Below are positions 1 to 62,520 of a DNA stretch of 64,000 nucleotides, piece after piece. The first letter of the stretch is position 1. Each line of letters opens with the position of its first letter. The notes below the pieces were generated by a model that ran no database searches, was not told the DNA's origin, and was given only the letters and a program-made list of their open reading frames with translations. The stretch is from Patescibacteria group bacterium (lineage in GTDB: Bacteria > Patescibacteriota > Patescibacteriia > 2-01-FULL-39-33). Position numbers and translations under genes: made by a program. The stretch lies in NCBI GenBank assembly GCA_041650895.1, contig JBAZKF010000001.1, positions 359,156-423,155 on the forward strand, in the 5' to 3' direction.

Positions 1-3000
1 TGGCACACTTATTGGTTCCGGGATTGGAACAATGAGCGGAATCTTCACAATTCACAGCGCCACTCTCGCAAGAGCATGGCTCGGCGGTGATTTCGCAAAG
101 ATAAGTATAGTCCTTGATCGACTGCGCATAATTTTCGGCCAAATCAGCAGTGATACAATTATTATTGGAAGAAAAAGCCGCTATCGTATTACTGCAATTA
201 CTGGCGCTTCTACAAGTACTGCTATCAGCTTCATCCGCGCTATCGCATTGGCAAGACTTTAAACCACCGCCATAAGACGAATCATTAAGCGTAGCCAAAA
301 CGGAATACTCGCAAACTCTACCATTAGTATTGCCTTGCACCCAAGATTGCACTTCTTCTTGAGCTGGAGTGGTTACGCCTGTACCATCCGAAGTGGTAAT
401 CAGTCCATTGCCGGACGGAACGTAACAAATCGGCAAAGGAATAATGCCTAATGGCTTGGCGCAAACCAAGTTCTTCCACATACCGACTGACAAAACTCCG
501 CCGAACAGAGTATGGCTGGCCGTATCGCCGATAGCGATAAAAATGCCGTCAAATTGAAACTTATAAATAAAAGGATAGCGGAAAAGCGGCGACCAGGTCG
601 GACTAATATTGAATGAAGTGGCCTTAGTTTGTTTGGCATTGGTATCAAATTTTAACGATTCCATGCCGGATTCATTTACGCCTTCACCGAATAGGCCAAA
701 ATTACCCGTATACTGTGAGACGTCCAAAATCATGGTTTTTTTCTCTAAACAATAATACAAGGGATAACGTTCACTATAATAACTAGAGAAATCACTTAAA
801 GTTTCACCACGGATAGAATCAACCGGCCACCACTGCAAGCACTGTTGATTATTAGCCGGATCAGGCGTCAAACAATAGCCATACTGGCCATAAAAATAAT
901 TATTACCGTCATTATATTTGCAGGCCGGCGCATTCATACTGGGATAAACACGGCAAGTTCGATCAATATAACCGCTAGCGCTAGACTTGAGTAATGGTTT
1001 AAGATTGACGTTATCCCATAAAGTATAACCGCCGAGTTTAGAATTATCTATGCCTTTGCTTCCGTCGGGATTCATATTAAATAAGGCGAGCTGCACTCCA
1101 GAAACATTATCGCCCGTACGGAAATGCACGATCACTTGTTTCCAGGGCAAGCCGGTAGGGGTTTGCATTACCTCGCCCTTAACCCAGTCACCCTCGTAAA
1201 CACCGCCATCAACAGCGGCCAAATTAGGACGCGGTTGCCCCTTAGAATTTATAAACCGCAAGCGCAATTCCGCGTAAGGCAAACGGCCGGCAACGCCCGG
1301 ACCTTGCAAATCCTTGGTATGAACCCAGGCAGACAAGAAATAATCTTGATTGGGCAATATATCAACCGATTCAGAAATAACTCCCCAACCCGAGTTAATT
1401 TTCAAATATCCCACACCATCCTTGGCTTTTGCGCCATCACGACCAATAGTGGTATAACTAGCTTGCCAATTCTTATAAACAACATCGGGATTGCCGGCGG
1501 CGCAATCGGAGTTACTGGCGCAATAATAAACGGCCAAACGCCAGCCCAAAGGTTGAGTGGTAGCGCCGAAAGCCTCTTCAAAATTGCCATTAACCACATT
1601 GGACGATTGGCCGACTTGCGTCATAGCATCAAAAGAATAATACCCAACGCGAGAGAAGCCGGATTTATTGGCATCCAATGAAGGAGAATATTGATCGCTA
1701 CTAACAGCATCATTAGCCAGATAATTATTACAAATGCCATTGTCGCCCAAAGAATTACAGGCGCCAACCTCCAAACAGGAATCCTGATCGCTGAAAAAAT
1801 ACGGGGCTAAGGTGGATGATTGGCCCTCCTCTTTCTTTTCAAAAGTAGAGCAAGTCAGCCAATTGGCGCAAGCACGATTGGGTTGCGATTTTAAAATAAT
1901 ATTAGCGTCTTTAGGTTTGCCTGCTTCAGTCACAGCGGCCGGTGGAACCGAGCGGGATAAGCCATTAATACCTTGCGGATAATTATTATCCCGAGTCAGG
2001 CGACTGGAAAAAGACAATGAAGTAGTGGCGCTATTAATCAAATTACTGTAATCAAGCTGACTGCGGTCATTAAATAGAACACAACCCTTATGGTAATCAA
2101 CTTGGCCGTTACAATCACCGCTGCTAACCTTGGAACTTAAAATATAAGAAACGCTGGCTAATCCAACCTTATCCCTGACCAAATCTATTGATGACCCATC
2201 CTGAGTCTTGAAAGTTACACGGCAAGTCAATGACTTGGGATTATCCACAGCTAAATAAAGATAATGGCCAAGATTGTCGGAGAAACTATTGCTTACCCCC
2301 TGAACATCGCTACAAATTATATCGCCAACCTTTATATTATCGGACAAAACATACAGAATGTTTTTCTTAATGGACACATCAACACAGGTGTCCTGGCCTT
2401 CGCAACGTTGCGGAATAAGATTAGACGCCAAGTTTTCCAACGGATCAATGTATTCGCTACAACCGGATTGCTCAGTTGAGCACGCCCCGACCCAGCCACT
2501 ATAAGCCGGACTGGACGGTGCTTGCAAAGTCACTGCATTAATCGGGCCCAACGGCTGTAATTTGTCCGTTGCTGATTTATAACTTAAACCCAATGTTTGC
2601 TGATAAGTGGTGGGACAAGTCTCAACAGTGCCGGATTTAAACCATTTATCCAGGCCGTTGGAACTATCAGAGGAAGTGAATTGGCAAACTTTACCATGCG
2701 GATCCTTAAAGTAAATTAAGGTATTATTACCCGCCCACTCTTCACACCATAAATTCTCCGCCGAACATAAGTCAGTAGAATAACGATCCGGATCGTTTTT
2801 AACATAAATATCCCGATAACCAGTAATCTCATCCCACTTATCTATTAAGGGTAAGCCGTAGCGAGTACAGCCCTTATCCCCTTTAGCACAAGAATACTTG
2901 TCATAATTAACCAAATAGACCAGGGTATCGGTCGCCACAAAAATATCATCATGGTTAACGCTATTGGCGATGTTAAACGATTGCGCCTGAGGCGCACTGG

Positions 3001-9334: not shown

Positions 9335-9490
9335 TTAGAGGTGTGGATAAGTTATGTATTAATTATACCACAAAATCGTTTTCGTAAAAAGATTTATATT
9401 AGAACATTTAAATAATGAATAAATCAAGGAAACAAAAAAACAATAATTACCTATTCTGTTACCTTATCGCCTAATTATTGTCTTATTTTA

Positions 9491-13988: not shown

Positions 13989-14555
13989 ATGTATTTAATA
14001 ATGGGTCTGGGAAATCCCGGCAAAAAATACGAATCCACCTGGCATAACCTGGGCTGGTTAACTGTTGAAAATTTTCGACAGTTGACTGATCTACCACAGT
14101 TTAAAAAGTCAGCCAAATTCCAGGCGGAAATCAGCGCCGGTGAAGTTAATGGCGAAAAAATTATCGTAGCTAAGCCGCTGACCTACATGAATAATTCCGG
14201 AATCAGCATCGGCGCACTGGCCAAATTCTATAAAATAAAAACCGAAAATATCATCATTGTCCACGACGATAAGGATTTGTCTCTGGGTCGGTTGCGTTTG
14301 TCGCAAGACTCTTCGGCCGGCGGACATAACGGGGTCAAATCGATTATTGAACATCTGAATAGCCAAAAATTCTTGCGTGTTCGTTTGGGCGTCAAAACGC
14401 CGCTGTTGGATAAAGTTTCTACCGCCGATTATGTTTTGATGAAATGGAACAAAAACGAAATGATGGCAATCAAAGAGCAAACAAAAAAAGCCGCAGAAGC
14501 GACTTTAGCTATTATTACCGACGGATTGGCCAAGGCCATGAATCAATATAATTAA
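13989..14555 (+). CDS. pth: Peptidyl-tRNA hydrolase
   Basis: Begins MYLIMGLGNPG… (Pth signature). The start used here is the internal Met of track ORF 13926..14555. Confidence 0.85.
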   Translation: MYLIMGLGNPGKKYESTWHNLGWLTVENFRQLTDLPQFKKSAKFQAEISAGEVNGEKIIVAKPLTYMNNSGISIGALAKFYKIKTENIIIVHDDKDLSLGRLRLSQDSSAGGHNGVKSIIEHLNSQKFLRVRLGVKTPLLDKVSTADYVLMKWNKNEMMAIKEQTKKAAEATLAIITDGLAKAMNQYN

Positions 14556-22845: not shown

Positions 22846-22934
22846 CTAACCAATCACTGATTAATAATTACTAATTACGAATATAATTATTTTAATTCGT
22901 AATTTGAAATCCGTAATTTGTAATTGACATTTGT

Positions 22935-23750: not shown

Positions 23751-24845
23751 CCCCTCCAATAATTCCTTTGTCTGTTGCGCGCATTTATCCCAAGTAAACT
23801 CTCGGGATTTTTGTTTTCCTTTTTCTGCCAACTGCTGTCGAAAATTTTCGACAGTAATTACTTTTTTAATCGCTAAACATATCTCTTCTTCTTTTAAGGG
23901 GTTCACATAGAGCACCGCTTCTCCGCCAATCTCCGGCAAAGAACCGGCGTCGGAAGTTATAACCGGCAAGCCACAAGCCATCGCCTCTGCCACCGGCAAG
24001 CCGAATCCCTCATACAAACTCGGAAAAACAAACACCTCAGCGTGGCTTAATAATTCATGTTTTCTTTCTGGCGTAACATAGCCCAGATACTTTATCGCTT
24101 CTTCCTGCAATTCAGCGTTAGCTTGTCTTAATCCTCTGAATATCTCTTCATTCTTCCAGCCGTTTTTACCGGCCAGAATTAATTTTAAGTCACGCGCCAC
24201 CGGCTCTTCCTGCTTAAGTTTTTTAAACGCCCCGATCAATCGCGTCAGGTTTTTCCGCGGTTCAATAGTACCCAGATACAAAATATATTTCTCTTTGCCT
24301 TTTTGATAAGTCGCTTCTCTGTCGGCCACGCCCTCATAGATCACCTCAATCTTTTCTGGCGCAATGCCAAATAGCTTAATAATATCTCGTTTAGTACTGT
24401 TAGAAACGGCGATAATCTTATCTGCTTGTTTTAAGGATTGCGGTACCAAATAACGCCGATCAAAATTGATCAACCGATCCAGAAATAACTCCGGATAAAG
24501 ATAAACTGCCAAATCATGAATTGTTACCACGGCTTGGCCGCGATAGCCCAAGGGAATAATATTGGCGGGAAACAGGCAGACATCAAGCTTTTGCCGGTTG
24601 ATTAACTTACCAACTATCAACTGGGAATAAAAAAACGGCAAATAACGACGATAACGCGACAACGGAAAACGCTTTATTTCATAATCGCCTGCCACTATTT
24701 CCGGAGGCAGTTTTTCATCTTCATTCAAAAACAAGACATAATGATTATGCTTGTCCTGAATCAATAGATTTTTAACCAACTGCCTGCCGTACTCGCCGAT
24801 TCCCGCCGAGGCAACCAGAGTCCGGCAATCAATCCCGATTCTCAT
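23730..24845 (-). CDS. Glycosyltransferase family 1 (GT4-like)
   Basis: C-terminal motif EGFGLPVAEAMACGLPVITS. Confidence 0.8.
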   Translation of the reverse strand: MRIGIDCRTLVASAGIGEYGRQLVKNLLIQDKHNHYVLFLNEDEKLPPEIVAGDYEIKRFPLSRYRRYLPFFYSQLIVGKLINRQKLDVCLFPANIIPLGYRGQAVVTIHDLAVYLYPELFLDRLINFDRRYLVPQSLKQADKIIAVSNSTKRDIIKLFGIAPEKIEVIYEGVADREATYQKGKEKYILYLGTIEPRKNLTRLIGAFKKLKQEEPVARDLKLILAGKNGWKNEEIFRGLRQANAELQEEAIKYLGYVTPERKHELLSHAEVFVFPSLYEGFGLPVAEAMACGLPVITSDAGSLPEIGGEAVLYVNPLKEEEICLAIKKVITVENFRQQLAEKGKQKSREFTWDKCAQQTKELLEGLQQVKR

Positions 24846-29367: not shown

Positions 29368-29455
29368 ATTTTGTCAATAGATTTATCCACTCTACCAACT
29401 AACTAATTATTTTTATCTAAATTTAAACAAAAAATCACCACTATCTATTGGGATA

Positions 29456-30974: not shown

Positions 30975-31003
30975 TCAATAATTTTGTCAAGGGGTTTATC
31001 CAC
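30975..31003 (-). promoter_or_regulatory. Promoter of target gene 2 (TTGACA -35 box; weaker -10), with a TTTATCCACTCC motif upstream as for target 1
   Basis: Reverse complement reads …gtggataaaccccTTGACAaaattattgatgtatgaTACAAA. Confidence 0.4.
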
Positions 31004-35905: not shown

Positions 35906-36007
35906 ACTGGGTCAGAGACCTGCCGGCAGGCAAGTCCGTAAAATCTACGCTTGTAACTTTAGACCTGCTTAATCGGCAAATAAGCTTTCGACCCGCGACT
36001 TAATTTT

Positions 36008-36395
36008 GGGGATGTTTTGCTTTGATAGAGATAATGTTTTCCTATTAGCAAACCGAGCATGGCGGCAAACTCGTTAATCCGTCGCCACAGGCAAAAATGC
36101 CAAAAACATCTTAGCTAAAGTCCAATCTGCTTTTAGCAGCCTGGCTTTGGCTCCTGTTCTCGCTTAATATCGAGAACCATCGCCGCGCCCATTCCCGGTA
36201 AGCGCTAAGCGGTGTTATATTATCGGGATCGCCACTGACGTCGCCAGAGCGCCCTTGGTCAAACTTTTCTGGATCGCTTAAGGATTTTTTGCCGCTTTTT
36301 CAGTCCTTAAGTCAGAATATAAAACGGCTAAGTTTGTATCACTTTAGGGGATAATTTATTTCTAGACAGGGGCTCATTACCCCTCATCTCCACAC
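36008..36395 (+). ncRNA. ssrA: Candidate tmRNA (ssrA) downstream of smpB
   Basis: The 5' GGGGATG pairs with the 3' CATCTCC, followed by a discriminator A (acceptor stem). An internal ORF …AKNILAKVQSAFSSLALAPVLA ends with TAA inside the loop of the hairpin gttctcg-cttaatat-cgagaac. A T-arm-like GGGG-ctcatta-CCCC lies just before the 3' end. The length, about 388 nt, is typical. The region is a 575-nt non-coding gap. Confidence 0.45.
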
Positions 36396-36489
36396 AAAAT
36401 TAAAAAGTCATTGAAGTCATAAAGTTAAACATCAACATCATTGCTTTAAATTTTATGGGCTTTAGACTTTAATAGACTAAATTAATACC

Positions 36490-37059
36490 ATGCGTAAATC
36501 ATTCAGAGGACGCCATCAAAAGCCGGAAGGCCCCAAGGAATTCCGCATCAATGAAAAAATCTTTTCTCCGGAATTGATGATTATTGATGAAAACGGAGCC
36601 AATCTCGGGGCCATGAGCCGTGATCAAGCGCTTAGCGAAGCTCGCGAACGGGAGCTTGATTTGGTTGAAGTTTCACCCAAGGCCAATCCGCCCATAGCCA
36701 AATTCATGGATTATGGCAGTTTCAAGTATCAGCGCGAAAAACAAGAGCGCAAAGCCAAGGCCAAACAAAAAACCACCGAAACAAAAACAGTCAAAATCTC
36801 GCCACGCATCGGCCAGCACGATTTGGAGGTCAGAGCGTCACAAGCCGCCGGATTCTTGGCTGACGGCGACAAAGTCAAAATAGAGCTGCAACTTCGTGGC
36901 CGGGAAAACCAACATACTGATTTAGCCAAAGGAAACATCCGCGAACTGGTTGAGGCTATCAAAGTCAGACTGATTGAGAAAAAAGAAGAACAGCCGATCA
37001 GGATTGAATCCGACATCACCAAGCAAGGCGGCCGTTTATCCATGACCATCACCTTATAA
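36490..37059 (+). CDS. infC: Translation initiation factor IF-3
   Basis: …MIIDENGANLGAMSRDQALSEARERELDLVEVSP…; the true start may be a non-ATG codon. Confidence 0.85.
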   Translation: MRKSFRGRHQKPEGPKEFRINEKIFSPELMIIDENGANLGAMSRDQALSEARERELDLVEVSPKANPPIAKFMDYGSFKYQREKQERKAKAKQKTTETKTVKISPRIGQHDLEVRASQAAGFLADGDKVKIELQLRGRENQHTDLAKGNIRELVEAIKVRLIEKKEEQPIRIESDITKQGGRLSMTITL

Positions 37060-37163
37060 ATAAAAAAATAATAAAAATCTGAATTCCCGAAAAATTCCAG
37101 TCCGCTAACGCCCGCTGCAAATTTTAGAGAATAACAAAATAAGGATAAATACTATTTTATAAT

Positions 37164-37364
37164 ATGCCTAAAATCAAGAGCAAGCAATCTATTGCTAAAA
37201 GATTCAAAATCACCAAAAAGAAGAAGGTTATCAAGCGTTCCACCGGTCAAAACCACTTTAACGCTAGAGAAACCGGCAAGACCAAACGCGCCAAAAGATC
37301 AGACGTTTCTTTGCAGGGCAAACAAACAGCGGCCAATATCCGCCGTCTTTTACCGTATAATTAA
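37164..37364 (+). CDS. rpmI: 50S ribosomal protein L35
   Basis: MPKIKSKQSIAKRFKITKK…; 66 aa. Confidence 0.85.
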   Translation: MPKIKSKQSIAKRFKITKKKKVIKRSTGQNHFNARETGKTKRAKRSDVSLQGKQTAANIRRLLPYN

Positions 37365-37437
37365 TTAATAACTAACAGTCCATAAAGTCCAAACTTTCAA
37401 CTTTACAGGCTTTAAAGACTTTCAATTTTATTACCAT

Positions 37438-37782
37438 ATGCCTAGAGTAAAACGCGGCGTCATGCATGCCAAAAGACGAAAAAACTTATTAAAAACCACC
37501 AAAGGTTTTGAACGAGGCCGCAAAAAGCTAATCAAACTGGCCAAAACCGCCTCCATTAAAGCCGGCGCTAACGCTTTACGCGACAGGCGCGCCAAGAAAC
37601 GAACAACCCGCACCCTCTGGCAAATCCAGCTTAATGCGGCTGTCCGCGAATACGGCTTGTCCTATTCCAAATTCATCGCCGGCCTCAAAAAAGCCAAAAT
37701 TGATTTGGATCGCAAAGTGCTGGCTCAACTGGCCCAGAAAGAACCGGCGGTCTTTGCCAAAATTGTGGAAAAAGTTAAATAA
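37438..37782 (+). CDS. rplT: 50S ribosomal protein L20
   Basis: MPRVKRGVMHAKRRKNLLKTTKGF…. Confidence 0.9.
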   Translation: MPRVKRGVMHAKRRKNLLKTTKGFERGRKKLIKLAKTASIKAGANALRDRRAKKRTTRTLWQIQLNAAVREYGLSYSKFIAGLKKAKIDLDRKVLAQLAQKEPAVFAKIVEKVK

Positions 37783-37790
37783 AAAAAGTA

Positions 37791-37828
37791 GGTCGCTCCG
37801 ATATTGCATCGGGGCGATTTTTTTATAA
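37791..37828 (+). terminator. Intrinsic terminator after rplT
   Basis: tcgctccgat…atcggggcga followed by TTTTTTT. Confidence 0.6.
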
Positions 37829-37916
37829 CGCAAATATTATTCTGACAAAAAACCGTGTCAGACAATGCCGACACGGCGTAAAGAACAAAAAAATTCAACA
37901 ACTCATAAAGAAAGAG

Positions 37917-38843
37917 TTAAAAATCAAACTTCCGGAAAAGACAGACGCGCAAATCAAAACTCGGTCTGCTGTGTTTGTGATTTTCGACACGGAGGCCGTA
38001 AGCATGGAAAAAGCCGACGGAAACGAACCAGTTAAAACTATCAGTCACGCTTGAACAATGTTGCCAATCTTCAGCTAAACGCTCTCCATTGATCATGAAA
38101 TTAGTCAGAATCGCTTCGCTAAAGATGGCGGGATTGACGCGCTCGTAAAGCGATTCGGGCTTCTGCGATTCCGCTTCCCGTTGGCCCCAATTGTGCCCAA
38201 CCCATCGACCCTTAAAGTCAATCAGATGGTAGCCACTGGCCGGCTGATGCTTAACCCAATAACCCTCTTTGTCGTGCAACCACCAGGTATAACCACTATG
38301 AAAACATGGCTGTTTTTCTTTCTCCCCGCCCTTACCGCGGATTTCGTACTGCTGGCGCAGGGATTTGCCGCTGACAAACACCAGGCGCCAATCAGTCCGG
38401 CCGGAGTAATTTTCAGCGGCCGCCTGTTTCAGTGTTGCTTTGGTGTAACGGATAGGTCCGTTAACAATCGGCTGACGCCAAACTCTAGCTGTGGCACGAG
38501 CCATGATCACCTTATTGGCACCAAGGATTCTAATCGCCTGTCGTACTGACAGATTAATCTGCACCGTTGCTTCATTTTGTGCTTGTGTTTGTATTGGATT
38601 AATCTGCACCGTTACTTCATTCCGCAATATGGCAGCGATCATAGCCGCCTGACCATCTCTTGGCACATCAGCCAAAACACGATTCAATACGGCTTCAAGC
38701 TGGCCGAGGTCAATATCGCCATATTTAATCGGTTTCCCGGCCTTGGCAGCTAAAAGCCGCGCCGCAGGCACGCCCAAGTGCTCAAGCAGAGCATAAACTT
38801 CATGTAATGTAAAAGTTCTGCAATCTTTCTTTTCATCTTCCAT
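37917..38843 (-). CDS. Hypothetical protein, moderately GC-rich, with an internal 22-bp direct repeat and a W/G/Y-rich segment
   Basis: 308 aa; RBS AAGGAGA. The consensus promoter TTGACA-17-TATAAT lies at 38960-38990 (reverse complement). attaatctgcaccgtt[g/a]cttcatt is repeated at 38559 and 38606. Confidence 0.5.
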   Translation of the reverse strand: MEDEKKDCRTFTLHEVYALLEHLGVPAARLLAAKAGKPIKYGDIDLGQLEAVLNRVLADVPRDGQAAMIAAILRNEVTVQINPIQTQAQNEATVQINLSVRQAIRILGANKVIMARATARVWRQPIVNGPIRYTKATLKQAAAENYSGRTDWRLVFVSGKSLRQQYEIRGKGGEKEKQPCFHSGYTWWLHDKEGYWVKHQPASGYHLIDFKGRWVGHNWGQREAESQKPESLYERVNPAIFSEAILTNFMINGERLAEDWQHCSSVTDSFNWFVSVGFFHAYGLRVENHKHSRPSFDLRVCLFRKFDF

Positions 38844-39194
38844 CTCATTCTCCTTTCAGGCGATTGGCCCGATTGATGGAATTTTTCCCCTACCCGAGGA
38901 TCAGGGTAACTCGACAATCACAATGCCAAGCCAACGAGTCATTATATCAAAAACAATATAATTTGTCAATAGTGTAAAGTAATAACAAAAAATTAGTAAT
39001 AAAATATCTAATTTTAGACAAAATTAACCATCTTGACTTTACCCAAACAATACGATATAATGATAACACAACTTAACCCTTTCCCATTCCCTTTTCAGGG
39101 GCTCTTAAGCGCCAAACGACTTAAGAAAAGGCAAACAACCACGATTCCTACGAGAATTCCAGGCTTGCCTTGGGATTTTTTTAATGTCTCGCTT

Positions 39195-39356
39195 GTCATT
39201 CCGACTAAGCGAGCAAGGCGAACGCGTGGAGGAATCGCTTGTTCTTCTTTGTCATTCCGACTAAGCGAGCAAGGCGAACGCGTGGAGGAATCGCTTGTAT
39301 TAAATAATTAAGGAATTCCTCGACTCCACTCCCGCTTCGCTTACGTTGCGCTCGGA
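39195..39356. repeat. Tandem direct repeat (2 × about 55 bp: ttgtcattccgactaagcgagcaaggcgaacgcgtggaggaatcgcttgt) plus a diverged inverted copy, upstream of rpsF
   Basis: Exact duplication at 39195-39249 and 39250-39304. Each unit is itself hairpin-forming (ATTCC…GGAAT). An inverted partial copy lies at 39320-39356. Confidence 0.7.
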
Positions 39357-39403
39357 ATAACAATGAGGAAAAACGCTGAATATTAATATAATTAACTCAT
39401 ACT

Positions 39404-39877
39404 ATGAACAATTACGAATTACTCTACATCATCTCCAATCAGTACACTGATGATGAAGCCGCCAAAATCAAAGCTAAAATCGACGGCATGCTTAAGGGCT
39501 TTGGCGCCGTTATCGGACTAGAAGAAAACTTAGGCAAAAAAAAATTAGCCTACCCCATCAATCGTATCGCCCACGGTTATTATTTACTCAATGAATTTGA
39601 ATTGGAAGACGGCAATCAACTCAAACAAATCAACGAGTTCTTACGCTTAGACAAAGAGATCCTGCGCGCGCAAATCGTTATCAAAAAGAAACTGTCTCCC
39701 GAAGAAATCGAAAAACAGAAAAAGCGCGAACAAGCCGCTGAGTTGCGCCGAGCCGCCGGAGAAAAAACCGAGGAAAAAGCCAAGCCGGCCGAAGCCAAAA
39801 AAGAAAGCAAGAAGGTAGACATTAAGGACTTAGACGAAAAATTGGAGGAGATTTTAAAAACCGACGATTTAGTGTAA
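39404..39877 (+). CDS. rpsF: 30S ribosomal protein S6 (with Lys/Glu-rich C-terminal extension)
   Basis: MNNYELLYIISNQYTDDEAAKIKAKIDGMLKGFG…. Confidence 0.85.
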   Translation: MNNYELLYIISNQYTDDEAAKIKAKIDGMLKGFGAVIGLEENLGKKKLAYPINRIAHGYYLLNEFELEDGNQLKQINEFLRLDKEILRAQIVIKKKLSPEEIEKQKKREQAAELRRAAGEKTEEKAKPAEAKKESKKVDIKDLDEKLEEILKTDDLV

Positions 39878-39991
39878 ACTGTAATAGTCCAAAGCTCATA
39901 AAGCCACAAGCCAAAACATCAAAAGGGGCTTCAACTTTATAAATTTTCGGACTTTATAAACCCAATAAATAATTACTCTAAATAAAATCGT

Positions 39992-40468
39992 ATGAACCTA
40001 AACAAAGCCATTATCATTGGCAATCTCACCGCCAATCCCGAGGTCAAAAAAACCGCTTCAGGTCAAACCATTGCCAATTTCTCCATCGCCACCAACCGCG
40101 TCTGGACCAACCAGCAGGGTGTTAAGCAGGAACAAGCCGAGTTTCATGCCATCGTCGCCTTCGGCCGCCTGGCCGAGATCGTCGGCCAATACCTGGCCAA
40201 GGGTCGCCTCTGTATGGTGGAAGGCCGTATCCAAACCCGCAACTGGATGGATACCAGTAATGTTAAACATTGGAAGACAGAAATCGTCGCTGAAAATATC
40301 CAATTAGGACCGCGTAGCACCACTTCCGCTAATGGCGGTTACGGCCAAGAGAGACCGAGTAACGGCGGCTATGATGCCGCTCCGGCTTATGAAGTTGAAC
40401 AGGTAGCTGCCGCTCCTGTAGCCAACGATAATGAAGAAGAAATAAAAGTTGAAGATATTCCATTTTAA
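39992..40468 (+). CDS. ssb: Single-stranded DNA-binding protein
   Basis: An OB-fold and the C-terminal acidic tail …EEEIKVEDIPF. Confidence 0.9.
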   Translation: MNLNKAIIIGNLTANPEVKKTASGQTIANFSIATNRVWTNQQGVKQEQAEFHAIVAFGRLAEIVGQYLAKGRLCMVEGRIQTRNWMDTSNVKHWKTEIVAENIQLGPRSTTSANGGYGQERPSNGGYDAAPAYEVEQVAAAPVANDNEEEIKVEDIPF

Positions 40469-40561
40469 ACCATCATTAAGTCAAAAGTCCATAAAGCCCG
40501 TGGAGTTAATTAATTTTGATTTTAACTTTGCGGACTTTGACTTTAAAAGACCACCAATATT

Positions 40562-40804
40562 ATGATCCAAAATAAAAAAAACACCAGTGCCGCAACACCG
40601 CAAAAACGCTATTGCCATTTTTGCGTCCACAATGTCAGCGACATTGATTACAAAAACGTTAATTTATTGCGCCGTTTCATCTCTTCTTATTCCAAAATCG
40701 TACCGCGCAAAAGAAGCGGTGTCTGCGCCTTCCATCAACGCAAACTCTCTAACGCCATTAAGCGCGCCAGAATCATGGCCCTGTTGCCGTTTGTTACAAA
40801 ATAA
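40562..40804 (+). CDS. rpsR: 30S ribosomal protein S18
   Basis: …[26 protein letters not shown]…. Confidence 0.85.
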
Positions 40805-40916
40805 ACAGTTATAAGCCTGAAAAATCATAAGTCATAAATCATAAAACCAAACATTTTATGAACTTGCAGATTTTTAATTTTAAGGGCTTTATAAACTTTT
40901 CACCAGAACTACTCCT

Positions 40917-41486
40917 ATGTCAATTTCCACCTTAAATGATATCAAAAAAGGCGTGAGTGTTATTTATAATGGCGAACCCTATGCCGTTGTTGAAGCCAAC
41001 TTTGTCAGAATGCAACAGCGCAAACCGGTCATGCAAACCAAACTGCGCAATCTATTAAACGGCAAAATAGCCGAATACAGCTTTCATCAAGGCGAGAGAG
41101 TCGACGAAGCCGACATGACCAGAAAAAAAGTCGACTACCTGTATAACGACGGCACCAGCTATTATTTCATGTCGCAAGATGATTTTGAACAATTTGCTTT
41201 GTCCGGCGAAAGCTTAAGCGACAAAGTCGGCTATCTGAAAGAAGGCGACAAGGTTGACGCTCTCTACTGGAACAATAATCCTGTTTCCGTTTCCCTACCG
41301 CCGAAAGTAGAGTTTAAAGTAATATCAGCTCCGGAAGGCGTTAAAGGCAACTCCGCCCAAGGCCGTGTCACCAAAACCGCTGAAATAGAAACCGGCCTCT
41401 CCGTACAGGTCCCCCTGTTCGTCAAGGAAGGCGACACTATTAGAATCAATACCGACACCGGCGAATACGTGGAGCGAGTCAACTAA
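40917..41486 (+). CDS. efp: Elongation factor P
   Basis: MSISTLNDIKKGVSVIYNGEPYAVVE…; 189 aa. Confidence 0.85.
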   Translation: MSISTLNDIKKGVSVIYNGEPYAVVEANFVRMQQRKPVMQTKLRNLLNGKIAEYSFHQGERVDEADMTRKKVDYLYNDGTSYYFMSQDDFEQFALSGESLSDKVGYLKEGDKVDALYWNNNPVSVSLPPKVEFKVISAPEGVKGNSAQGRVTKTAEIETGLSVQVPLFVKEGDTIRINTDTGEYVERVN

Positions 41487-41488
41487 CC

Positions 41489-41533
41489 CCGAGATATATA
41501 AAACAGCTCCGAGATAATCGGGGCTGTTTTTAT
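41489..41533. terminator. Bidirectional terminator between efp and recA
   Basis: ccccgagat…atcggggctg followed by a T-run. Confidence 0.5.
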
Positions 41534-41541
41534 ATATAATT

Positions 41542-42630
41542 TTATTCTTTCATTGCCGGTTCATCTTCATAACCATCATTGTTGGCTGGTGGCGGAGCAA
41601 CGCCCGCTTGTTCAGCCTCTCTAAGCTTTTTTACCTCTTCCAGAATCTGTTTCCTAATTATAGTCATCAGCTTGGGATTAGCCTTAAGATAAGCCTTGGC
41701 ATTTTCACGGCCTGTGCCTAGCTTTTCTTCGCTGAAAGTATAAGTATTGCCGGCTTTGCTGATAACGCCTTTCTCTAAACCGACATCCAGTAAATCGCCG
41801 GAAACAGAAATGCCTTCATTATACATGATATCAAATTCGCAAGTCTGAAAAGGCGCGGCCACTTTATTCTTAACCACTTTAACCTTAACCCGATTGCCGA
41901 TATTTTTATCGCCCTGTTTTATTTGCGCGGCGCGACGGACTTCAATGCGGACTGAAGAATAAAACTTCAAAGCGGTGCCGCCGGTAGTGGTCTCCGGATT
42001 ACCGAAAAACACGCCAATCTTCATGCGGGTCTGGTTAATGAAAATCAATACGGTTTTAGATTTGGAAATGGCGCCGGTCAGTTTCCTCAATGCTTGACTC
42101 ATCAGACGCGCCTGCAGGCCCATGTGGGAATCACCCATATCACCTTCAATTTCCGCTTTAGGCACCAAAGCCGCCACCGAATCTACTACTACGACATCAA
42201 CGGCATTGGAGCGAATCAGGGTTTCTACTATCTCTAAAGCCTGTTCGCCGGTATCGGGCTGAGAAATAAACAACTCATCAACCTTCACGCCGATTTTTCT
42301 GGCATAATCGGGATCCAACGCATGCTCTGCGTCAACGAAAGCGGCCACGCCACCCAATTTCTGCACCTCAGCCACAATATGCTGAGCCAGAGTGGTTTTG
42401 CCTGATGCCTCCGGTCCGAAAACCTCCACAATCCTGCCTCGAGGCACTCCACCCACGCCTAAGGCGATATCCAATGACAGAGCGCCTGTGGACACGGCAT
42501 CAACTTCCATAGCCCGAGCCTCACCGAACTTCATAATGGCTCCATCGCCAAAACGCTCTTTAATCTGGCTGATAGCCGATTCTACGGCCTTGAACTTCTC
42601 ATTTCCCTCCTCGCTGGTCTTTTTAGGCAT
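41542..42630 (-). CDS. recA: Recombinase RecA
   Basis: Walker [10 protein letters not shown] and RecA signature sequences; 362 aa. Confidence 0.95.
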
Positions 42631-42641
42631 AAATATAAAAA

Positions 42642-43277
42642 TTACTGATTAATCTCGTTAAATAGCACACGGATGATCGCTTCGGACTGGCGACTGTAAC
42701 GCTTCTTCGCAGTTATTTTAATCAAATTCAAGCCCTTTTGCAAGTCAACAGTAGTGGAAAAATTACCGCCGGTATCCACAAACACCGCTCGGTTATTAAT
42801 GACAATTTCCGCCTCGCGCGAAGACGTACCAGTCACTTCCAACTGGCGATTAACTGTTATCAATCCGTCAGTCGGGTGTAACACCGTCAACTGCGGCGGC
42901 CGAAAAATTTCATTGACCCGCCAAATCAAAAAAGCCAGAAGCGCAATAATACCGATAATAACCACTGCCTGGGAAATAAAATTAGACCAGACAAACAAAT
43001 TTTTGTTCTTCAACGATTTATAAGACAAGGAATGCAGTTTATCGGCGGCCTCTTGGCAAACAGGATGGTCCAAACCCAAGTAGTCACAGTAAGTCTTGAG
43101 AAATTTAGGCAGATAGTCTTTACCCGGCAAGAGCCAAGGTTGATTCTGCTCCAAGGCCTCCAGATATTTAGTGGCGATTTTGGTTTCTCCTGATGCCTTA
43201 AGTAAGCTCACGCCCTTTTTGAGGCGCGCCTCTTTTAAATTATCCCCCAAATTTTCAATAAAACCTTTTTCTAACAT
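42642..43277 (-). CDS. HTH (XRE-type) domain membrane protein, RodZ-like
   Basis: An N-terminal HTH ([30 protein letters not shown]), a TM helix and a C-terminal β-rich domain. Confidence 0.5.
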
Positions 43278-43295
43278 AAAATAATTGATTTATAA

Positions 43296-43378
43296 AGTCA
43301 AAAGTCCATAAAGTCCATAAAGTCAAGACTTCCAATATTTAATGACTTTAGACCTTATGGACTTTCAACTTTTAACTT
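43296..43378. repeat. REP-like intergenic palindrome (GTCCATAAAGTC … GACTTTATGGAC family), one of at least six copies
   Basis: aAGTCCATAAAGTCCATAAAGTCaagacttcc…GACTTTAGACCTTATGGACTTTc. Related hairpin units occur at 36405-36475, 37375-37435, 39878-39960, 40470-40555 and 40805-40910. Confidence 0.6.
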
Positions 43379-43384
43379 AAAAAG

Positions 43385-46255
43385 CTAAGCCCATTCGTCA
43401 TCGTCAAAGTAATTCTTTGACGATCCTTTTGTTGATTTTTTAATTTTAACTTCCTCTTCTTCTGGCTCCTCCGGCTGGTTATCGGCGGTAAACGGTTTTT
43501 CCTCCTCTTCTTCCTTTATTATTTCTTCTTTTGATTCTTCCCGCATTTCCTCCGTCTTCTCCGGCTCTTGCGGGGTTTTCTCAAACGCCGGCTTTATTCT
43601 TTCCTTCTTTTCTTTCTTCTCAACTTTGTTCGGCTTATCTTTGTACGATACTTGTTCAAATTCTTCCACTTCCGCAAACTGAGCCATAGGCAATTCTTCC
43701 TCTTTTTCGCCTTTTTCTTCCTGGATCAACGAAACGTCTTCCGGCTCATTCAATTCCTTCTCCAAAAAATCCGGCGATTCTTCATCTGACTCTGCTAATT
43801 CCTCGCTGGATCCAAACAGATCGTCACTATCATCCTCCGGTGGACGGAAGGCGGTAAAACTCGGCTCTTCTTCGGCTTCATCGGAATCAGCCTCCACAAA
43901 AGGATTATCATCCAATGGCCTTAGCTCTCCGGTTAAGCCGTGTTCGCGGGCAGCAAACTCTACCGGGTCAGCTCCGCCTAATTTATCCAAAAATATCTCT
44001 CGGGGTTTGGCGCCGTCAGCCGGACCAATCACGCCTCGTTCTTCCAATAAATCAAGAATTCTGGCCGCCCGAGCATAACCCAATTTCAAACGGCGTTGCA
44101 ACAACGAAGCCGAGGCTTTGCCATTCTGTTTGATTACCTCAACCGCCTCGCCCAGAAGCGGCTCGTCATCGCTATCAAAACTGCCATTACCGCCACCGCC
44201 GAAACTGCCACCGGTCGTGGCCAAATCATCAATATAGTCGGCTTGGCCTTGTTTCTTAATATAGCTAACCACGTCATTAATCTCATGGTCAGACAAGAAT
44301 ACCCCTTGAATGCGTTTGGACTTGGCGAATTCCGCTCCCAAATACAGCATATCGCCGCGGCCCACTAACTTCTCTGCGCCAGTACCGTCAAGAATAGTGC
44401 GCGAATCAATGGAAGAAGCAACAGCAAAAGAAATACGCGTAGGAATATTTGCCTTAATCAACCCGGTGATAACCTCGGTGGAGGGGCGTTGAGTAGCCAA
44501 AACCAAATGAATGCCCACGGCGCGAGCCATTTGCGCCAATCGCACAATACCCGCTTCCATATCATTAGGATTGGAAGCCATCAAGTCGGCCAGCTCGTCA
44601 ATAATCACGACAATGTAAGGCATCTTCTCGGCATGGGTTTGGTTATAAGACGCGATATTGCGATTACCGAATTTAGCCAGAAGTTCAAAACGCCTTTCCA
44701 TTTCTGTAATCAGCCATTTCAAAGCGCCAACAGTCTTTTTGACATCAGTAACAACCGGAGTAAGCAGATAAGGAATATTATTATACACCGGCATTTCTAC
44801 GCGCTTGGGATCAATTAAAATGAATTTCAACTCGTCCGGACTGTTCTGGTACATTAAAGAAACAATAATGGAATTAACACAGACGGATTTGCCGCTGCCC
44901 GTCTGGCCGGCGATAAGTAAATGAGGCATACGGCCCAAATCAGCAAAAATCGGCTTACCGGACACATCTTTGCCCAAGGCCAAAAATAAATTATTGCCCC
45001 GCTCTTTGAATTCCTTGCTGGCCAGCACTTCTCCCATAGTCACCTTGGCCGCGGTTTGATTGGGAATCTCTATGCCCACCAAGGCCTTGCCAGGGATAGG
45101 CGCTTCAATACGAATCGGATGAGCGGCTAAAGCCAAGGCCAAATCAGCATTAAGCGTAGTCAAACGCGCCAACTTTATTCCGGCAGCCGGACGCATGGTG
45201 TATTGAGTGACAGTCGGACCGACATTGACTTCGCCCATTTCCACATCCACACCAAAATTAGCCAACGTACGCCTAATGATTTCTTGATTGGCCTTAATAT
45301 CTCCGGAAGTAGGTTTGCCTGATTTGGCAGACAGTAAACTCAAAGGCAAATCTAGTCGGCCGAACTTGCGACGCTTGGCTTCAGGCGTAAATTCATCCCT
45401 AATGCCGGAATCAGTCAGCGGTTTGTTGGTAAAATTCGGGCTATCGTCGTCAGTCGGCATAACCGATCCATCCTCTTCGGTACCTTCCTCTTCGGCCGAT
45501 TCACCTACCGCCTCTTCCTCATAATCTTCTTCGGCCGCCAGATTGGCCAGTTTGCGCTCGTTGCGCTTAAGCCGATAATAAAAATACCAATCCTTCAGTT
45601 TTCCAAAAACAAATTTAAATAATTTTATCGGCCACATCAAACCGTAAAAAGAAGTTTCTAAAGCCAACAGAATGCCGACCAAAAGCAAAGCGATCAAAAC
45701 TACCAGGGCACCCCAAAAACTCATCAGCCGTACTAAGGGCAAAGCGACAAGCGCTCCGAGATAACCGCCGCCTTGGCCGATCTTAGCCATCTCTAACGCC
45801 TGCCAGGAATCGTATTGCAAATGGAATAAGCCACACAAGCTGACGACCAAAAATAAGGCGCCTAAATAATTAATAAAACTGATGGGATATTTTTCCTCGT
45901 AAAGCAAGAAAAAAATCAAAGCAGCCAAAAGAACCGGAATCAGCCATTTAACACTGCCGAAGACTATGGCCAGGACATAAGCCGCCACCTGCCCTATTTG
46001 GCCGGACAAATCAAACAAGCCCAAAATAGTCAGGGCGGCAAAGACAAACAGGAAAATAATAAATATCCCCTTTTTGGTCTCCGGCGACAAACCGCGCCAA
46101 TAATCAAAAAAATTAAAACGCGGTGCCGTGTAATGGCCGCGATTGGATTTTCCCCGGCCCCAGAAGGCGCGGTTGGTTTTACGATAATGACGAGGCATGA
46201 AAAATAGAGACGTTTCTTTTGCCTTATTATACCACAAAAAGCAAAAAAGCGCCAA
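43385..46255 (-). CDS. ftsK: DNA translocase FtsK/SpoIIIE with an approximately 230-aa acidic low-complexity C-terminal extension
   Basis: N-terminal TM helices, the motor Walker A GQTGSGKS and a γ winged-helix (…LLQRRLKLGYARAARILDLLEERGVIGP), followed by a D/E/K-rich tail. Confidence 0.9.
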   Translation of the reverse strand: MALFCFLWYNKAKETSLFFMPRHYRKTNRAFWGRGKSNRGHYTAPRFNFFDYWRGLSPETKKGIFIIFLFVFAALTILGLFDLSGQIGQVAAYVLAIVFGSVKWLIPVLLAALIFFLLYEEKYPISFINYLGALFLVVSLCGLFHLQYDSWQALEMAKIGQGGGYLGALVALPLVRLMSFWGALVVLIALLLVGILLALETSFYGLMWPIKLFKFVFGKLKDWYFYYRLKRNERKLANLAAEEDYEEEAVGESAEEEGTEEDGSVMPTDDDSPNFTNKPLTDSGIRDEFTPEAKRRKFGRLDLPLSLLSAKSGKPTSGDIKANQEIIRRTLANFGVDVEMGEVNVGPTVTQYTMRPAAGIKLARLTTLNADLALALAAHPIRIEAPIPGKALVGIEIPNQTAAKVTMGEVLASKEFKERGNNLFLALGKDVSGKPIFADLGRMPHLLIAGQTGSGKSVCVNSIIVSLMYQNSPDELKFILIDPKRVEMPVYNNIPYLLTPVVTDVKKTVGALKWLITEMERRFELLAKFGNRNIASYNQTHAEKMPYIVVIIDELADLMASNPNDMEAGIVRLAQMARAVGIHLVLATQRPSTEVITGLIKANIPTRISFAVASSIDSRTILDGTGAEKLVGRGDMLYLGAEFAKSKRIQGVFLSDHEINDVVSYIKKQGQADYIDDLATTGGSFGGGGNGSFDSDDEPLLGEAVEVIKQNGKASASLLQRRLKLGYARAARILDLLEERGVIGPADGAKPREIFLDKLGGADPVEFAAREHGLTGELRPLDDNPFVEADSDEAEEEPSFTAFRPPEDDSDDLFGSSEELAESDEESPDFLEKELNEPEDVSLIQEEKGEKEEELPMAQFAEVEEFEQVSYKDKPNKVEKKEKKERIKPAFEKTPQEPEKTEEMREESKEEIIKEEEEEKPFTADNQPEEPEEEEVKIKKSTKGSSKNYFDDDEWA

Positions 46256-46422: not shown

Positions 46423-46668
46423 TCAGCGGCGAAAATACTTTTTTATTTCCCTGATAGTCAAACGACGAGCGGTTTGCAATCGCTGTATTTCCTTGAGCCG
46501 TTTCAAGGCCCAAGACCGGTCATACAGGCGATAACCGCCTGGTGATTGATCGGCGAATTTAAGCAACCCTTCCCGCGTATAGTAATGGATGGTGGAGGGC
46601 AAAACTCTGGCCGCTTGGGCCAATTCCCCGATTTTTAACAACTCAGCCAACCGGCCGCTCTTGTCCAT
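46423..46668 (-). CDS. MerR-family HTH transcriptional regulator (short, 81 aa)
   Basis: LAELLKIGELAQAARVLPSTIHYYTREGLL matches a MerR HTH. A possible small TM peptide overlaps its 3' end (46307-46420). Confidence 0.55.
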   Translation of the reverse strand: MDKSGRLAELLKIGELAQAARVLPSTIHYYTREGLLKFADQSPGGYRLYDRSWALKRLKEIQRLQTARRLTIREIKKYFRR

Positions 46669-46899
46669 AATTATAGCTTCCCGGTATTGCCGTCTCAGCT
46701 GTATTCAAATACAACGATCCGGCATAACGGTAAGGGGTGACACTAACCATAAAGTATGAAGTACGAAGTACGAAGTACGAAGTAATAAGGCATACTTTAT
46801 AGTTAGTATATTACAGCAATTTTTTCTTTCTGACAAGAGACGGTTATCCACAGGGGAAAACTCATTGTTCAGAACAAATTAAAACAATAAAAAAAACCG

Positions 46900-46935
46900 C
46901 TCCCCCGAAGGAGAGCGGTTTTTATAGTAAACTTA
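46900..46935 (-). terminator. Intrinsic terminator of rpoC
   Basis: ccgctctccttcgggggagcgg plus a T-run in the minus sense. Confidence 0.7.
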
Positions 46936-54264: not shown

Positions 54265-54753
54265 AAAAAAGCCCTCATTTCCCTTATTTTAGCCAAATAC
54301 TTGGCCATGAGCGTTAGAAATGAGTTCGATTATTTATTTATTGAGTTGTATTTTTAGAATAAGACACTAATTTTTACGGCTTATTAGTGTTCACAAGCAC
54401 TCTAAATGACTTCTCCGCCCGTTAGCGGATAAAGATTTAATATAATTATATTAACAGAAACGATAAAAGAAGTCAACACTTTTTTTGACCACTTGAGCAA
54501 GATTTTATTATTTGTCAAATAATAATTAATTATTATCTAAATTTAGCCAATAATAGGTATAAAATATCTAAAAAATTAAAATTATAAATTAAAAAATATT
54601 TGAGTTATCCACAGGTAGATTACTAATCTAATCAGTAGTCAAACTGCAATAGTTGATTTTTATGCTTCTTAGGATTATACTTACCAATACATTTTAGCAA
54701 AAAATGAGGCACTTTACAAAATCATTGCACAAAACGCAAAGGAGTAAAAAACG

Positions 54754-59014: not shown

Positions 59015-59050
59015 TTTTAATCGAACATTTAACTACTAGAATAAAAGCTG

Positions 59051-59085
59051 TCGAAAATTTTCGACAGCTTTTTATTTTTCTTATC
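59051..59085. terminator. Bidirectional terminator: perfect palindrome agctgtcgaaaattttcgacagct followed by a T-run
   Basis: The same 21-bp palindrome also occurs inside the glycosyltransferase gene at about 23833-23853. Confidence 0.6.
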
Positions 59086-62141: not shown

Positions 62142-62520
62142 GATGACAACATCCTTCTTCTTTTGGATCTGCCAGAGTCGCTCTGGCTGACGTCTTGCCT
62201 CTATCTATATGAGGCGAGCATATTAGACACGAATAATTCATGTCCGATACGCTTGCCTCATAATCCTATAAGCCTAAATTTAATGCTTTTAAGGAACAAT
62301 AACTATCATATTAGTATAGCAAATATGGTAAATTTTGTCAAGCATTTTAGGTATGGTCTACGGACATATCCGACACTTTCGTGGTAATATTTAGCCAAAA
62401 CAAGCTAAATGGTTATCCACAGAAATTTCCAAGCAACAGCAATCCATAAGAATCTATTAAATAAAAAGGCCCGACTAAGAATTAATCAGGCCTCATTAAA
62501 AATTCAATCGTGATACTAAA

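Follow-up and report, generated by a model that had tools for sequence, protein, structure and literature searches.

A family of AT-rich palindromic repeats in operon spacers of Patescibacteria and its likeness to PF05635 intervening-sequence cassettes

The 23S rRNA intervening sequence (IVS) of Coxiella has been described as a selfish element in which a 28 bp stem of terminal repeats surrounds the S23p open reading frame (ORF), and which is excised by RNase III (PMC4990558). A second class of small palindromes, the repetitive extragenic palindromes (REPs), are 20-40 bp long and usually GC-rich, carry the tetranucleotide GTAG or CGTC at one end and require a REP-associated tyrosine transposase (RAYT) (PMC3733652). 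Here we set against these and other systems a family of six AT-rich palindromic repeats in a 64,000-nucleotide stretch (the window) of a Patescibacteria group bacterium genome (assembly GCA_041650895.1, contig JBAZKF010000001.1, positions 359,156 to 423,155, forward strand); all statements about this genome cover these 64 kb. IVSs and their S23p ORFs have been called selfish for thirty years, and we know of no work that has identified the population from which they come or the way in which they move.

The reading that we favour, and that sequence comparison makes rather probable, is that the six window elements are gene-less copies, resembling miniature inverted-repeat transposable elements (MITEs), of an IVS-like selfish cassette that carries a PF05635 gene and is common in Candidatus Buchananbacteria-like Patescibacteria. 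The closest public relatives of the window genome are labelled Candidatus Buchananbacteria (SSB proteins 92-94% identical, syntenic DNA about 82-84% identical).

An earlier note on this DNA had described a dispersed family of intergenic palindromes, built from one word and its complement, in six spacers. The exact word GTCCATAAAG occurs four times in the window (37378, 40487, 43304 and 43313, all on the plus strand), where 0.12 occurrences are expected from shuffled sequences, and the 14-mer AAGTCCATAAAGTC with at most two mismatches has seven matches against 0.34 expected. The exact word marks only three spacers, however (rpmI-rplT, ssb-rpsR and that between ftsK and the RodZ-like gene); the others hold degenerate units such as GTCATAAAG, GCTCATAAAGCC and AGTCATAAATCATAAAAC, and the exact complement CTTTATGGAC is absent from the window, its nearest form being CCTTATGGAC in element F. 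Because the exact word is confined to three spacers, we built a covariance model (R1) to test all six, training it on 11 clear elements from several genomes (A, D and F among them) and searching the whole window with filters off; its E-values are rough. The matches fall in precisely the six reported spacers, with no further site at E<0.1 in the 64 kb, so that the family as such is confirmed. The six copies are packed into 7 kb and the remaining 57 kb hold none. All six fold as single long imperfect hairpins, with z-scores against dinucleotide shuffles from -2.3 (B, weak) to -7.1 (F), and B and E are the weakest family members. Outside the elements the core words occur at their expected frequency, which excludes a general effect of AT-rich composition, the low-complexity explanation by which the earlier note would have been refuted, and speaks against a role as a DNA uptake or Chi-like signal. 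At the gathering threshold an Rfam scan of the window returned the tmRNA and three tRNAs only, and the repeats match no Rfam family. Full-text literature searches found no description in Patescibacteria of this repeat family, in line with the earlier note, which knew of none in this lineage, or of PF05635 cassettes flanked by its arrays.

The elements are imperfect palindromes of 70-100 nt with a GC content of 0.24-0.32, arms of 20-35 nt and, in the window, loops of 17-35 nt. In the 5' arm, AAAGTC(C)NN units of 7-9 nt, typically about four, follow one another, and the 3' arm is made of their complements; a compound unit of 16 nt, AAAGTC(A/G) followed by AAAGTCC(A/T)T, can be recognised. The loops are variable in sequence, unlike the arms, which are kept in sequence beyond mere pairing. 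Whichever strand is considered, the A-rich arm lies 5' of the T-rich arm, by 22 to 0 at SSB-centred loci and by 65 to 2 at metagenome loci, and this fixed polarity argues for common descent from one kind of element and excludes arbitrary hairpins. An element usually opens on the left with TAGTC or TAAGTC and closes on the right with GACTA(A). Of 136 ends, 53 have TA and 46 have AA directly ahead of the terminal GTY, and eight times the first G of an element doubles as the last letter of the stop codon TAG. Across the family, elements begin 0-15 nt behind the upstream stop (median 9-10 nt), and their distance to the next start is variable. In the window all six sit inside operons between co-directional genes, begin 7-15 nt past the upstream stop or the 3' end of the tmRNA gene, and end 9-33 nt before a start codon without a Shine-Dalgarno sequence. 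The association with operon ends for which the earlier note had proposed a test does not hold there: as the terminator of the infC-rpmI-rplT operon illustrates, operon ends are served by ordinary terminators and the repeats are internal to operons.

The same units also form one-armed direct arrays (about 80 motif matches, 3-31 units each), a few of which lie in frame inside ORFs. Two such arrays, of four to five AAAGTC units (L114, 1828-1856, and L103, 382-420), encode ...SQKSIKS... in apparently intact ORFs that by eye resemble LeuRS and YchF, so that repeats can persist in coding sequence.

The link to IVSs comes from arm pairs that are widely spaced. Pairs of an A-array and a T-array repeatedly bracket an ORF of about 115 aa, and these ORFs are mutually homologous, match PF05635 ('23S rRNA intervening sequence protein', E=3e-33), correspond to TIGR02436 ('four helix bundle protein') and are related to PDB 2GSC. 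The protein has more than 5,000 homologues, many of them annotated from Patescibacteria. The cassette, in the order A-array, PF05635 ORF, T-array, is present in at least ten motif-seeded loci, which represent five or more gene contexts. From 5' to 3' it consists of TAGTC, which comes after the stop codon of the preceding gene, the A-array, the ORF from its ATG to a stop codon within the first T unit, and a T-array of GACTTT units that ends in GACTAA; the ATG of the next gene follows a few bases on (3-30 nt from the GACTA(A) end). Approached from the protein as seed, the same arms were found at 8 of 9 fetched loci. In nearly every case the ORF is co-directional with its neighbours. Arm spacing is bimodal, at 0-60 nt or about 340-460 nt, with 56 pairs at 0-60 nt, about 30 at 339-516 nt and five at 60-300 nt, and the PF05635 ORF is enclosed in 30 of the 30 pairs spaced 339-516 nt. 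Since the window copies have no ORF but every wide arm pair has one, the window copies would be ORF-less derivatives. Two sites on one contig (L223 and L224) have 401 nt in common at 98% identity, a stretch that runs from the A-array through the ORF into the beginning of the T-array. Inverted repeats also surround other PF05635 genes of Patescibacteria (L052, L140), with sequences unrelated to the present arms. The four-helix-bundle protein matched no PADLOC model, and a defence role was set aside.

The cassette recurs between ABC-2 permease and ABC ATPase (Wzt-like) genes in several lineages (L211, L218, L126, L170, L212, L213 and L219), which reflects either an old insertion or a preferred site. 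In L211 a second PF05635 gene lies 5 kb from the cassette.

The family is widespread in Candidatus Buchananbacteria-like Patescibacteria. The covariance model has matches in ten related genomes (L002, L003, L005, L008, L021, L022, L023, L024, L029 and L053), and metagenome contigs scanned with the word AGTCRAAAGTCCWTAAAGT gave at least 120 stretches, which disposes of the possibility that only the window copies exist. For the metagenome sample, which was seeded with one 19-mer variant, the model confirmed 42 two-armed copies among 83 motif-seeded loci. A motif scan of viral contigs gave three isolated matches and no arrays. The neighbours in the motif-seeded sample are assorted housekeeping genes of many kinds, so that the clustering with translation and recombination genes noticed earlier holds locally, in the window, and a specific tie to translation genes is unsupported in that sample. 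The sample has 26 co-directional, 5 divergent and 4 convergent spacers, a mix similar to that of the background (311, 82 and 80).

Presence of the elements is optional. About half of the related genomes have element-free rpsF-ssb, ssb-rpsR and rpsR-efp spacers of 1-26 nt, and we therefore regard the elements as dispensable. At orthologous sites the number of units differs between genomes, a hairpin in one genome may be matched by a one-armed array in another, so that an arm can be lost, and hairpins of unrelated units, for example CATATGGCT or AGTTAGT in L002, may replace the element. Between two contigs with flanks 91-98% identical, a 22 nt GC palindrome has been inserted in an arm. The dominant unit variant is specific to the genome, being CCAT in the window genome and L005, CCTT in L003 and TTAT in L008 and L053, and the unit sequence is conserved across genomes with SSB only 60-70% identical, though loops and flanks are not.

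Compared with the IVSs that carry an S23p/PF05635 ORF in Coxiella and Leptospira, the family is alike in having inverted repeats that form a stem of about 20-30 bp around a four-helix-bundle ORF of about 115-120 aa (PMC4990558), in its short versions without an ORF, in its sporadic, 'selfish', optional distribution, in its location inside a host transcript and in the presence of RNase III in the lineage. It is unlike them in that the window elements lie in mRNA spacers or after the tmRNA gene rather than in 23S helices 9, 25 and 45, that the stems consist of expanding and contracting tandem units of 7-9 nt, and that each lineage offers many insertion sites. Of the IVS hallmarks, then, all six window copies have the long terminal-repeat stem, and none has the PF05635 ORF or the 23S helix location.

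MITEs such as Correia/NEMIS of Neisseria, RUP and ERIC resemble the family in their terminal inverted repeats and length of about 100 nt, intergenic position, presence/absence polymorphism, two size classes and frequent TA at the ends. RNase III cleaves Correia elements. Like MITEs, the present elements are small, have inverted repeats at their ends and are present in some relatives and absent from others, but the larger form encodes a four-helix-bundle protein and no transposase-encoding relative was seen, the arms are internally tandem-repetitive, and one-armed arrays are common.

Two further systems are looser analogues. The TAACTGA heptamers of Beggiatoaceae, cyanobacteria and Bacteroidetes are likewise short tandem units near gene boundaries, often without Shine-Dalgarno sequences and including ribosomal protein operons, and no mechanism of dispersal is known for them (PMC4679880); however, they have another unit and are direct only, whereas the present family has inverted pairs, a linked ORF and an anchor at the upstream stop instead of the downstream start. 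The hairpin repeats of organelles (sponge mitochondrial RHEs, Fusarium palindromic microsatellite repeats) are AT-rich, optional and indel-associated and invade the spacers of small genomes (PMC2800124, PMC7218506), but are unrelated in sequence and host and have no associated ORF. TIGR arrays, which occur in Patescibacteria and consist of tandem 36 nt units with edge and loop repeats beside a Nop-domain Tas gene (PMC12045711), were rejected as an identification, the units here being of 7-9 nt (compound 16 nt), the hairpins single and scattered, and the neighbours identified by Pfam and without a Tas gene.

If the window elements are such gene-less copies, they would be transcribed by read-through within host operons, having themselves neither a canonical promoter nor a canonical terminator. 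For C, D and E, the best sigma-70-like promoter for rpsF-ssb-rpsR-efp lies upstream and a terminator-like hairpin downstream (Table 1), so that these three should be co-transcribed. In RNA an element would be an imperfect stem of 20-30 bp joining the upstream stop and the downstream start, and RNase III probably cuts this stem by analogy with 23S rRNA intervening sequences; such a cut would divide the polycistronic message into pieces whose ends are capped by stems, with an effect on the host that may be small or neutral. Arms would grow and shrink via replication slippage. Insertion may prefer TA at or next to stop codons, for which the TA flanks are suggestive but unproven.

Several points weigh against this reading. 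The case for deriving the window copies from full cassettes is their agreement in arms, ends, polarity and position, and the history may have run the other way, with the ORF inserted into pre-existing hairpins. No PF05635 homologue was found in the 64-kb window. No longer arm-bounded element with a transposase was found either, and an autonomous element of that kind was accordingly rejected; the only long form carries the four-helix-bundle ORF. A clean pair of filled and empty alleles that would define the ends or a target duplication was not found among the loci compared, TA flanks are present at only about 40-60% of ends, and the boundaries of L223 and L224 are without clear duplication. Cleavage by RNase III is an analogy, for which the only support is a stem length of 20-30 bp and the finding of RNase III genes on array- or cassette-bearing contigs of relatives (L123, L165 and L208). 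Genes in the fetched loci were called as simple longest ORFs, which is crude. In one-armed arrays the A-type strand is the sense strand in 41 cases against 17 (p=0.002), a bias from which it follows that transcription or translation constrains the arrays. The close placing of elements behind the upstream stop, with a variable distance to the next start, likewise suggests that gene expression limits where they lie. Lastly, in the window genome, L002, L003 and L005 the same spacers persistently hold some hairpin despite a change of sequence family, which could mean that a hairpin is useful at these sites.

The strand bias and the persistent occupancy belong to the main rival, according to which the hairpins are intercistronic RNA elements of benefit to the host, acting as processing sites or stabilisers, or bringing stop and start together for coupled translation where a Shine-Dalgarno sequence is missing. 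We consider this unlikely, if by no means negligible. It would account for the placing of all six window elements between co-directional genes, at short range from the stop and from starts without a Shine-Dalgarno sequence, and it has a precedent in the tandem repeats of Beggiatoaceae, which lie upstream of starts in Shine-Dalgarno-poor spacers and have been proposed as translational signals (PMC4679880). Yet about half of the relatives do with short element-free spacers at the same sites, the spacer types of the motif-seeded sample match the background, some arrays are in frame inside ORFs, and the arms are conserved in sequence and not just in pairing. There is also no sign of a selected RNA structure or signal. 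In the RNAalifold consensus the pairs are essentially invariant and show no covariation, with compensatory change in only 1 of 16 consensus pairs; the mismatches between arms show no excess of sense-strand G-U (25 of sense G-U type, 38 of antisense type and 95 transversions); and folding energies of sense and antisense strands are mixed, the antisense strand often folding better. The 7-mer set (ACTTTATAAAC) that is most enriched upstream of starts was considered as a functional motif seeding local expansion; the idea was rejected, since the enrichment stems from the right arms of the elements themselves and since it is the upstream stop, and not the downstream start, that fixes where an element lies.

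Alternatively, the AAAGTC units may be binding sites, on DNA or RNA, of a trans-acting protein, the top candidate being the pentameric four-helix-bundle protein of the cassette, with arrays forming a regulatory, defence or mobility complex; this we think distinctly improbable. The conservation of the unit across genomes whose loops and flanks vary, the predominance of one variant per genome and the number of about four units per arm are what such sites would predict. The cassette protein is related to the nucleic-acid-binding Avd proteins of diversity-generating retroelements. It is also homologous to the structure PDB 2GSC, which is a pentamer (PMC4990558). On the other hand, the window has six arrays and no PF05635 gene, hairpin families of unrelated units use the same sites, no PADLOC defence model recognises the protein, and units spaced by 7-9 nt match no evident helical phasing.

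That the repeats are true REPs, or bacterial interspersed mosaic elements (BIMEs), mobilised by a RAYT, the resemblance drawn in the earlier note, has very little probability. Many E. coli REPs lie close behind stop codons, and proteobacterial REPs and BIMEs share with the present repeats an extragenic, palindromic and repeated nature and possible stem-loops in mRNA. But length (70-100 nt), composition (AT-rich), the 7-9 nt sub-repeats and the ends (TAGTC or TAAGTC...GACTA) are all wrong, the defining GTAG or CGTC head (PMC3733652) is absent from the six window copies, one-armed direct arrays exist, and no Y1 transposase is among the best 25 of the 80 Pfam families matched by 50 flanking proteins.

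Hardly more credible is a role of the elements as promoters, or as terminators or attenuators of the adjoining genes (terminators are among the roles that the earlier note named for REP-like elements). In its favour, TTGACT words arise from the T-arm, the 3' arm is rich in U and the position is behind gene ends. Against it, a window-wide scan gave no canonical signal of either kind within the six, the two weak promoter-like matches (in D and F) have -10 hexamers (TATGAT, TATGTT) that overlap the start codon, so that the transcript would begin inside the gene, the TATAAA form lacks the conserved final T of a -10 hexamer, the AT-rich stems have no free U-tract and received no terminator-like call, separate GC-rich terminators end the operons, and many relatives lack the elements.

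Beyond the favoured reading of the window copies as derivatives of a PF05635 cassette lies a more general and rather doubtful proposal: PF05635 genes with AAAGTC-type arrays may be a new class of mobile 'operon hitch-hiker' that inserts at or after stop codons, is expressed by host read-through and leaves gene-less hairpins behind, of which the classical 23S IVS would be a special case, and whose pentameric protein would recognise the units, in RNA or DNA, for excision, processing or spread. An IVS-like architecture at many mRNA-spacer sites of Patescibacteria gives a concrete system for asking how such elements spread and what their protein does, the more so as it offers gene-less derivatives, variation in unit number, turnover of sites and a near-identical duplicate on one contig. 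For the annotation of reduced genomes, the elements account for a good part of the long, otherwise puzzling spacers that interrupt conserved operons, and they counsel caution against annotating such spacers as regulatory RNAs.

Table 1. Positions of the repeat elements and of other features in the 64-kb window
Feature	Position	Strand	Context	Description	Covariance model match	Fold
Element A	36405-36478		between tmRNA gene (end 36395) and infC (start 36490)	imperfect palindrome; right end TAGACTAA, 11 nt before ATG	36388-36479, 59.6 bits (training copy)	RNA -16.8 kcal/mol, z -3.6
Element B	37376-37428		between rpmI (stop 37362-37364) and rplT (ATG 37438)	short, degenerate palindrome; exact GTCCATAAAG at 37378	37360-37449, 36.5 bits, E=3.9e-4 (outside training)	weak, z -2.3
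Element C	39885-39958		between rpsF (stop 39875-39877) and ssb (ATG 39992)	palindrome; TAGTCC start 7 nt past stop	39875-39978, 34.4 bits, E=9.4e-4 (outside training)	z -3.0
Element D	40476-40550		between ssb (stop 40466-40468) and rpsR (ATG 40562)	palindrome; TAAGTC start 7 nt past stop	40468-40567, 65.8 bits (training copy)	-21.4 kcal/mol, z -4.1
Element E	40807-40900		between rpsR (stop 40802-40804) and efp (ATG 40917)	degenerate palindrome	40812-40898, 28.6 bits, E=0.011, marginal (outside training)	z -2.7
Element F	43290-43378		between ftsK (stop 43385-43387, -) and RodZ-like HTH_25 gene (ATG 43277, -)	best preserved	43285-43378, 83.3 bits (training copy)	sense (-) strand -36.5 kcal/mol, z -7.1
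Possible decayed seventh copy	35919-35965		14 nt past smpB stop	GC mini-palindrome CCTGCCGGCAGG, then AAGTCCGTAAAATC...ACTTTAGACC
tmRNA gene	36008-36395		upstream of infC	Rfam match
Canonical GC-rich intrinsic terminator	37790-37820	+	infC-rpmI-rplT operon	13-pair stem with 6 GC pairs, then T-run; outside the family
Second canonical terminator	46892-46923			terminator scan
Best sigma-70-like promoter	39033-39061	+	rpsF-ssb-rpsR-efp	TTGACT-17-TATAAT, 11 of 12 positions matched; context only
Terminator-like hairpin	41500-41530		downstream of C, D and E
ORF of 308 aa	37917-38843	-	between infC and rpsF operons	no Pfam match
ORF of >2,750 codons	2-8275	-	extends past left window edge
Direct repeats TTGTCATTCCGACTAAGCGAGCAAGGCGAACGCGTGGAGGAATCGCTTGT, two copies	39193-39242, 39249-39298		leader between 39033-39061 promoter and rpsF	perfect, 50 nt
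Diverged copy of TTGTCATTCCGACTAAGCGAGCAAGGCGAACGCGTGGAGGAATCGCTTGT repeat	about 39312-39360		same leader	reverse orientation, by eye
Separate hairpin	46742-46807		downstream of promoter-like site, upstream of MerR-family gene (46423-46668, -)	arms ACTAACCATAAAGTATG / CATACTTTATAGTTAGT, 94% complementary; loop (GAAGTAC)x4		z -5.2
AT-rich hairpin	22851-22926		between two tRNA-Met genes (-)	TAATTAC-type units
Palindrome (A/C)TGTCGAAAATTTTCGACAG, three copies	14057-14086, 23830-23859, 59043-59072		third between convergent genes	third a perfect 30 nt palindrome
DnaA-box-like word TTATCCAC	9343-9350	-	intergenic
TTATCCAC, five further sites	29383-29390, 30996-31003, 46844-46851, 54605-54612, 62413-62420		intergenic
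TTATCCAC	2241-2248		inside ORF

Between 35.4 and 46.3 kb the window holds smpB, the tmRNA gene, infC-rpmI-rplT, the 308 aa ORF (minus strand), rpsF-ssb-rpsR-efp and, all on the minus strand, recA, the RodZ-like HTH_25 gene and ftsK. Pfam identifies the genes that flank the elements (IF3, L35, L20, S6, SSB, S18, EF-P, RecA, HTH_25 RodZ-like and FtsK), in agreement with the names given before; the feature upstream of infC, left unnamed then, is the tmRNA gene. Promoters (canonical TTGACA-17-TATAAT) and GC-rich terminators lie at operon borders, outside the repeat-bearing spacers.

The fate of the individual elements differs between relatives. Element A has orthologues in L003 and L005, and its site in L002 holds an unrelated hairpin; orthologues of B are longer in L002 and L003 and the element is absent from L005; the sequence of C is identical in the independent read-assembly contig L001. 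At the site of D many relatives have a spacer of 3-21 nt without an element. Element E is missing from L003, the closest syntenic relative (about 82% nucleotide identity), where the spacer measures 20 nt, and about half of the relatives have an rpsR-efp spacer of 1-26 nt. Element F consists of four A-type units and their complements, with inverted repeat arms of 22 nt that are 86% complementary. The candidate seventh copy behind smpB has a match to the 14-mer with two mismatches and was undetected by the covariance model in the window; the orthologous smpB-ssrA spacer of L003 has a model match (6266-6371, 41.5 bits).

The 308 aa ORF is missing from this position in L002 and in L003 shows only 39% similarity, over part of its length, which makes it a small variable island. 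The word TTATCCAC occurs seven times in the window against 1.7 expected, six times in intergenic sequence. At 29383, 30996 and 46844 the TTGACA-like -35 of a minus-strand promoter is preceded, a few bases away, by the reverse complement GTGGATAA, and the word may serve several promoters as a nearby operator or activator site. The (A/C)TGTCGAAAATTTTCGACAG palindrome could be an operator for a regulator or a bidirectional terminator-like site.

Other repeats also occur in the window and its relatives. Sequences similar to the direct repeats in the rpsF leader (GTCATCCCGAGCGGAG...) are found in the rpsF-ssb spacers of L021 and L017; this is a second, GC-richer repeat family. The hairpin upstream of the MerR-family gene is conserved in L002 and L003, there with about two loop heptads, and may be a real RNA structure of the 5' untranslated region, because one position that pairs as G-U in the sense strand is A-C in the antisense strand. 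The AT-rich hairpin between the two tRNA-Met genes is of the same style as elements A to F and unrelated to them in sequence. A GC mini-palindrome, CCTGCC(N0-4)GGCAGG, lies beside or inside AT-rich elements in the window (35919-35930), L003 (7664-7679) and L002 (13254-13269), and L134 has it where L189 lacks it, although the flanks of the two are 91-98% identical. In appearance it is a tiny second mobile palindrome, lodged within the AT-rich ones. Finally, a near-identical 30 nt sequence, AATAACCAATAATCAAGNTACAATAATCAAA, in non-orthologous spacers of L002 (8324-8429) and L011 (rpsR-efp) points to a further dispersed hairpin family.

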